This document shows, one piece after another, positions 294 to 350 of a stretch of 541 bases of DNA (the first letter of the stretch is position 1; every line of letters begins with the position of its first letter). Under the pieces are notes generated by a model. It did not search any database and had not been told where the DNA came from. It worked only from the letters and a program-made list of their open reading frames with translations. Source of the DNA: a phage; the sequence record EF517040.1; one strand, given 5' to 3'. Made by a program: the position numbers and the translations under genes.

Positions 294-316
294 TAATTGA
301 ACTCACTAAAGGGAGA
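294..316 (+). promoter_or_regulatory. T7 RNA polymerase class II promoter (phi3.8), -17 to +6, predicted transcription start at G311
   Basis: TAATTGAACTCACTAAAGGGAGA aligns without gaps to the T7 consensus TAATACGACTCACTATAGGGAGA, differing at -13, -12, -11 and -2; the CTCACTA core and GGGAGA initiating sequence are conserved. Position immediately after gene 3.5 matches the known phi3.8 location in T7. Confidence 0.9.
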
Positions 317-350
317 CCACAACGGTTTCCCTTTGTTCGCATTGGAGGTC
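311..350 (+). promoter_or_regulatory. Structured 5' leader of the phi3.8 transcript; candidate hairpin, possibly corresponding to the T7 R3.8 RNase III processing site
   Basis: GGGAGA (311-316) can pair with UUUCCC (326-331) as a 6-bp stem with one G:U pair and a 9-nt loop; GACC (315-318) is alternatively complementary to GGUC (347-350). From memory, T7 has an RNase III site (R3.8) about 20-25 nt downstream of the phi3.8 start; exact structure not verified. Confidence 0.35.
344..348 (+). promoter_or_regulatory. Shine-Dalgarno sequence (GGAGG) for gene 3.8
   Basis: GGAGG at 344-348, 7 nt upstream of codon 356-358, which begins the in-frame HNH ORF at the position expected for the gene 3.8 start. 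Confidence 0.7.

Follow-up and report, generated by a model that had tools for sequence, protein, structure and literature searches.

Overlap of promoter phi3.8 and RNase III site R3.8 in a phage T7 variant: a conserved hairpin that spans the transcription start and probably takes two forms in phage RNA

RNase III sites of phage T7 shape the stability of the polycistronic mRNAs of the phage, and a hairpin located at the very first nucleotide of a bacterial mRNA protects it from 5'-end-dependent decay. In general, substrates of E. coli RNase III consist of two helical turns, and bulges or internal loops can confine cutting to one strand (PMC1540722). With T7 R1.1 and its minimal derivative as model substrates, the shortest helix with significant reactivity had 11 pairs between the cut and the loop; removal of one pair caused a 50-fold loss and removal of two pairs abolished cleavage (PMC1540722). 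For the proximal box, GC, AU/UA, AU, AU/UA is optimal, and for the distal box, UA/UG (PMC1540722). The phi3.8/R3.8 element is itself already known. R3.8 lies just downstream of the phi3.8 start (PMC6938266), and it appears as a strong site, redrawn after Dunn and Studier 1983, in PMC5592923. It matters as the point past which the levels of class II transcripts fall: read counts decrease downstream of R3.8 in T7 infection, where no terminator is present, and in a simulation, cleavage takes place downstream of the phi3.8 start, which gives phi3.8-started RNA the site as well (PMC6938266). Related phages have annotated counterparts. In the T3 record AJ318471, a stem_loop at 10616-10642 bears the label 'RNase III recognition site R3.8' and overlaps the end of 'T3 promoter phi3.8', and the phiYeO3-12 record AJ251805 has the same layout, with 11350-11377 labelled 'putative RNase III site R3.8'.

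The window analyzed here, a 541-nt stretch of phage DNA, corresponded to nt 10870-11410 of phage T7 with 98.7% identity across its full length; a T7 coordinate equals the window position plus 10869. According to T7 records, gene 3.5 (lysozyme) occupies 10706-11161, promoter phi3.8 is at 11180, and gene 3.8, encoding an HNH endonuclease, occupies 11225-11590. All features described below are on the plus strand. The ORF list, the T7 annotation, and the alignment placed the 3' part of gene 3.5 (lysozyme/amidase) at 5-292, with the stop codon TAA at 290-292. The T7 RNA polymerase promoter phi3.8 (TAATTGAACTCACTAAAGGGAGA, -17 to +6) follows at 294-316, and its start, 11180 in the T7 records, is G311. 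The start codon position of gene 3.8 is 356-358 by the T7 records and the alignment, and a Shine-Dalgarno (SD) motif GGAGG can be read at 344-348, 7 nt upstream of the T7 start at 356 (11225). Hence, the T7 alignment and records bear out the locus proposed in the initial annotation, namely the phi3.8 start between T7 genes 3.5 and 3.8.

Compared with T7 R3.8/phi3.8, the window represents the same locus: the promoter and both hairpin arms are identical, and the site is located just past the phi3.8 start. It differs in carrying a G322A change in the hairpin loop and ATA instead of ATG at the gene 3.8 start (356-358), and in having lost a second hairpin that is predicted for the wild type. R3.8 of T3 and phiYeO3-12 is formed by homologous hairpins that also begin at promoter position -4, with arms AAAGGGAGAC/GUUUCCCUUU and a GUUC tail, but their stem is one pair shorter, gene 4 follows directly without gene 3.8, and a lower stem CGAGAA/UUCUCG is predicted. 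The T3 stem_loop, UAAAGGGAGAC-UUAAC-GUUUCCCUUUG, is the homologue of window 307-335, where the T3 and phiYeO3-12 stem-loops align. The proposal, made before any such comparison, that the leader holds a candidate RNase III site R3.8 therefore agrees with the literature, which places R3.8 here, and with the R3.8 labels on the homologous stem-loops of T3 and phiYeO3-12. To this known element, our analysis adds a corrected structure, in which promoter bases form part of the helix and an SD-sequestering alternative is not credible; comparative evidence that T7-like phages have kept the promoter/hairpin overlap through compensatory changes; and a testable proposal that RNA initiated locally and RNA read through from upstream are handled in different ways. 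These points alter the current understanding of T7 R3.8 only a little.

In RNA started at G311, GGGAGACC (311-318) pairs with GGUUUCCC (324-331) to form 8 pairs closed by the loop ACAAC (319-323). The minimum free energy (MFE) was -13.7 kcal/mol for 311-350 and -14.4 kcal/mol for 311-360. Energy z-scores for the two segments were -1.9 to -2.0, with 7-10 of 200 shuffled sequences equally stable; energy alone is weak evidence for the 311-331 hairpin, which is modestly unusual by this measure. In partition function calculations, all 8 pairs had an ensemble probability of at least 0.99 in three RNA contexts, and this held for RNA from 311 and for read-through RNA from 241, in the window and in wild-type T7. 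The initial annotation had drawn the hairpin from GGGAGA (311-316) and UUUCCC (326-331) within the first 40 nt of the transcript. This pairing is real and longer than supposed, reaching 8 pairs up to C318-G324, but the helix is not confined to the transcript and begins at promoter position -4 (U307).

The 311-331 hairpin opens at the first transcribed nucleotide with no 5' tail, and the probability of its terminal pair G311-C331 was 0.99. Because of the G322A change, the first 22 transcribed nucleotides of the window (311-332, GGGAGACCACAACGGTTTCCCT) are identical to the T7 phi10 leader; phi10 and most close relatives likewise have A at 322. The phi10 (gene 10) leader of expression vectors has the same 22 nt and the same 8-pair 5'-terminal hairpin, but the read-through stem at phi10 is broken by a U-C mismatch at -2.

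With the upstream sequence included, the stem at phi3.8 gained A310-U332, A309-U333, A308-U334, and U307-G335, giving a 12-pair stem-loop at 307-335 (U307-G335 to C318-G324, loop 319-323) that is supported by the folds, the annotated homologues, and covariation. Pair probabilities were 0.99 for A310-U332, 0.94-0.98 for A309-U333, 0.86-0.93 for A308-U334, and about 0.6 for U307-G335, with an overall range of 0.56-1.0 along the stem. The fold of 285-360 had a z-score of -3.76, and 1 of 200 shuffles was equally stable. The full stem takes in promoter bases -4 to -1, which are present only in RNA read through from upstream promoters. At -2, phi3.8 has A in place of the consensus T, and this A permits the AAA/UUU pairing that includes A309-U333. 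The base at -2 hints at a trade-off between promoter strength and the hairpin. In three relatives (L022, L023, and L031), the consensus T at -2 produces a U-U mismatch in the stem.

We compared the two RNAs with the enzyme rules described above. The read-through RNA offers 11-12 pairs (A308/U307 to C318), at least the 11 that are needed, whereas the G311-started RNA has only 8. On the assumption that the cut is 11 pairs from the loop, G311-C331, A310-U332, A309-U333, and A308-U334 match the proximal box fully, and the G311-started RNA is without three of these four pairs. The loop-adjacent pairs C318-G324 and C317-G325 do not match the UA/UG of the distal box, a rule that was defined on a minimal substrate and from which natural sites vary. 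Thus, the read-through stem resembles R1.1 and its minimal derivative (PMC1540722) in having at least 11 pairs from the loop to the expected cut and an optimal proximal box, and differs in that its distal box is C-G/C-G instead of UA/UG, its internal loop and lower stem are ill-defined, and its 5' arm doubles as a promoter.

We consider it quite probable that this region is an overlapping promoter phi3.8/RNase III site R3.8 module of T7 that yields two forms of RNA. In the first form, a long RNA from upstream promoters would include bases -4 to -1 and fold into 11-12 pairs (U307/A308 to G335/U334), perhaps stacked on a weaker lower stem, and would serve as a substrate of host RNase III. A cut on the 3' side of the stem, at about 334-337, would leave the upstream mRNAs with a protective terminal hairpin, and the downstream product would begin with an unstructured 5'-monophosphate end. 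The second form, begun at G311, would have 8 pairs only, lack the three A-U pairs beside the cut site, and probably be a poor RNase III substrate; its 5'-terminal hairpin leaves no free 5' nucleotide and would be expected to slow 5'-end-dependent decay. From the 8-pair stem and the three missing proximal-box pairs of the G311 RNA, we infer that the read-through RNA is the substrate and that the phi3.8-initiated RNA largely escapes. The discrimination between the two RNA forms, the precise cut position, and the stabilizing roles are put forward here as expectations from the folds and the enzyme rules.

The expected cut falls within a conserved 3' tail, UUUGUUCGC (332-340), which is shared with relatives and in which the 11-pair rule (PMC1540722) predicts cleavage of the 3' strand at about 334-337. 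RNase III sites are not listed in the T7 GenBank feature tables that we examined. We take R3.8 to be given at 11203 in the T7 record (window 334), 2 nt from the position predicted by the 11-pair rule for the 3' strand. The same tail could be read differently, since a stem containing G + C is followed here by a U-rich run (332-337) and transcript abundance drops past the site in T7 infections (PMC6938266): the hairpin with UUUGUU might act as a weak intrinsic terminator or pause that attenuates read-through into genes 3.8 and 4. A terminator scan found none on the plus strand, the U run is broken by G335, and U332-U334 are paired with A308-A310, all of which make this explanation highly improbable. 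A small hairpin at the end of gene 3.5 (271-284, GGUCA-CUUC-UGACC), predicted in read-through RNA, was flagged as terminator-like on the minus strand; its sequence is conserved in most relatives, possibly only as coding sequence.

To learn how distinctive such a start-spanning hairpin is, we folded all 17 T7 promoters. Hairpins that span the start were also found at phi10, phi17, and phi13, the last from +1 only. In the T7 genome (L093), they are located at 22898-22933 (phi10, 9+3 pairs), 34560-34599 (phi17, 14 pairs reaching -6), and 27268-27314 (phi13), and scores from a covariance model of the phi3.8 hairpin were 60.8 bits at phi3.8, 33.2 at phi10, and 19.5 at phi17. A promoter-spanning hairpin is not a peculiarity of R3.8, as phi10 and phi17 have such hairpins too. 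Neither of these two is known to belong to the ten listed RNase III sites of T7. A hairpin by itself is therefore not diagnostic; it is on the literature and the annotated homologues that the assignment of R3.8 is based.

These observations raise the question of whether the hairpin serves only as a 5'-terminal stabilizer of the phi3.8 mRNA, of the gene 10 leader type, with no role for RNase III. Such a role would suit a hairpin that starts from the first transcribed base with a probability of at least 0.99, shares its first 22 nt with the phi10 leader, and has counterparts at phi10, phi17, and phi13 that likewise begin at +1. However, the pairs at -3 to -1 are conserved and the pair at -2 covaries (A-U to C-G), yet they are absent from phi3.8-initiated RNA, and both the literature and the T3/phiYeO3-12 annotation set an RNase III site here. 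We therefore regard the stabilizer role by itself as unlikely and retain the two-form module as the preferred reading.

The comparative evidence came from 80 loci in viral contigs that were collected with the lysozyme protein as an anchor; the sample is therefore independent of the hairpin sequence. A T7-type promoter followed by the hairpin was found downstream of the lysozyme gene in 79 of the 80 loci. The sole exception was L029, in which 1130-1330 contained neither a T7-type promoter nor a hairpin downstream of the lysozyme gene. The 79 loci comprised 27 distinct variants, and every one of the 27, folded singly, gave the same hairpin from promoter position -4/-3 to about +24. The arms differ among lineages: AAAGGGAGACC/GGUUUCCCUUU, ACAGGGAGAC/GUUUCCCUGU, AAAGGGAUGAC/GUUGUCCCUUU, AGGGAGG-CCACA/UGUGG-CCUCUCU, and GGGAGGACC/GGUUUCUCCC. 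Plain MAFFT alignments of the hairpins were out of register, and RNAalifold then returned 0 pairs; they were replaced by per-sequence folding and alignment to a covariance model, which was built from eight gap-free sequences and aligned 78 hits. In this alignment, 94.3% of the cells were standard pairs, compared with 37-61% in slid-partner controls, and the covariation score was reached by none of 500 shuffles; this alignment had been fitted to the structure, and few independent lineages account for the changes. Three pairs were changed on both sides, from A-U to C-G at -2, from G-U to U-G at +5, and from C-G to A-U at +7. The pairs at -3 to -1 were conserved, and that at -2 covaried. This conservation shows that the hairpin is not a product of chance.

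An inverted repeat could also arise as a by-product of constraint at the DNA level, either on the initially transcribed sequence or through copying between phi3.8 and phi10, and would then have no function in RNA. Its 5' arm is indeed the conserved promoter/initiation sequence GGGAGA, and phi3.8 and phi10 share 22 nt. But the two arms change together in several lineages (GGGAUGAC/GUUGUCCC, ACA/UGU, and GGGAGGACCACA/UGUGGCCUCUC), and pairing is lost in the slid-partner controls, so this is the explanation to which we give the least credence. Returning to the module with two RNA forms, the 3' arm was found to go with the promoter sequence: AAA/UUU in T7 and T3, and ACA/UGU in the Klebsiella Przondovirus group. 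A tentative extension, which is possible although we do not favor it, is that the proximal-box pairs inside the promoter (-3 to -1) represent a conserved design of T7-like phages, by which only read-through RNA would be cut and locally started RNA would keep a protective 5' hairpin, with the 3' arm tracking the promoter sequence. If true, promoter specificity and the processing-site sequence would co-evolve.

Part of the initial annotation concerned translation. It had suggested that GACC (315-318) might pair alternatively with GGUC (347-350) to hide part of the SD, and that exposure of the ribosome binding site of gene 3.8 could depend on processing or folding here. GACC and GGUC are complementary, but the probability of their pairing was about 0.000 in all contexts, and forcing it cost +7.4 kcal/mol in the window and +9.9 kcal/mol in wild-type T7. 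In the close relative phiA1122, the corresponding sequence is GGAGAUC, which breaks C317-G348 with no compensating change. The competing structure that SD sequestration would need is thus neither probable nor conserved, and the SD-hiding alternative has to be abandoned.

The predicted exposure of the SD was also insensitive to the origin of the RNA. In wild-type T7, the SD bases 345-348 were 0.9-0.99 unpaired for RNA from 311, from 335, or from upstream, which means that the SD is predicted to be equally exposed in initiated, cut, and read-through RNA, and this does not support control of the ribosome binding site by processing or folding. Wild-type T7 is predicted to form a second hairpin at 338-360 with 7 pairs, whose loop holds the SD and whose stem includes the AUG (probability 0.76-0.98), and the AUG was paired in this hairpin in all three RNA forms. 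A comparison of pair probabilities between the wild type and the window indicated that G358A abolishes the 338-360 hairpin (at most 0.005 in the window); in read-through RNA, the change also favors a fold in which 292-304 pairs with 345-357. In the close relative L011, which has A at 342, the second hairpin is disrupted as well. Finally, the promoter and hairpin module precedes different downstream genes in relatives and thus has no fixed link to the ribosome binding site of gene 3.8. For a translational switch of gene 3.8, acting through GACC/GGUC refolding or RNase III processing, one could still cite the complementarity, the partial pairing predicted for the SD region in every context of the mutant window, and the wild-type AUG within the second-hairpin stem. 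Against it stand the negligible probability and cost of the alternative pairing and its disruption in phiA1122, the open wild-type SD whatever the RNA start, the different genes behind the module in relatives (T3 has no gene 3.8), and the broken second hairpin of L011. We judge such a switch very unlikely, and the two-form promoter/RNase III module remains our reading of the hairpin.

Below the 12-pair stem, the predictions were inconsistent: the lower stem varied with the variant, and relatives use differing upstream partners. The tail GUUC(G) could pair with GAAC at 299-302, but this candidate lower stem (299-302/335-338) had a probability of 0.03-0.08. Another candidate, with its 5' arm at 292-304 and its partner at 345-357, was predicted by folding in the window only, where it formed part of the MFE fold with a probability of about 0.55-0.83; in wild-type T7 the value was 0.03-0.07, because the local 338-360 hairpin wins. 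The tail GUUCG of T7-like relatives that lack gene 3.8 finds its partner in upstream UGAAC, and UUCUCG of T3-type phages finds it in CGAGAA; promoter bases on the 5' side are bulged in either group.

What follows the module depends on the phage: the promoter, hairpin, and tail precede gene 3.8, gene 4, small ORFs, or a tRNA-like element. In L013, L017, L023, L020, and other loci, sequence divergence begins right after the hairpin or the GUUCGC tail. In T7, gene 3.8 has the appearance of an insertion between GTTCGCATTG and the ribosome binding site of gene 4; given this insertion-like placement, the conserved promoter and hairpin mark a module boundary. In Klebsiella Przondovirus-type loci, a tRNA-like element of approximately 66 nt follows the R3.8-like hairpin (L042 1221-1286; also L040, L043, L046, L048, L056, L060, L061, L066, and others). 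Its parts include an acceptor-like stem of 7 pairs, a perfect T arm (GGGUUCGAUUCCC), and an ACCA tail. ARAGORN called no tRNA for this element, and Rfam gave only a weak tRNA-Sec match (17 bits, E 0.68).

We also examined the window as a variant of T7. It differs from T7 at seven positions (214, 322, 358, 420, 440, 470, and 504), all of them transitions from G:C to A:T. The change at 214 is synonymous in gene 3.5, that at 322 is the G-to-A difference in the hairpin loop, and that at 358 converts the gene 3.8 start from ATG to ATA; the remaining four (420, 440, 470, and 504) are missense changes, all in gene 3.8. Six of the seven are at or past the phi3.8 start, and five occur in no relative carrying gene 3.8. 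A search of viral and metagenome contigs gave no exact match to the ATA variant. The single direction of the changes and their clustering in a non-essential gene suggest, as a speculation drawn from the nucleotide differences, a mutagenized or heat-stressed laboratory line of T7 in which gene 3.8 may be decaying. Both mutagenesis and heat-stress experiments with T7 are mentioned in PMC8923235.

An Rfam search of the window revealed no relevant family. The only match was a chance one to HAV_CRE on the minus strand, which scored 22 bits where the gathering score is 55. The matching region, 419-463, is an inverted repeat in gene 3.8 (GTCAATG...CATTGAC), to which C420T adds one pair. In addition, an in-frame GTG at 407-409, located after GAGGAGG (391-397), could be an internal start that, with the ATG lost, would give a gene 3.8 product shortened by 17 residues.
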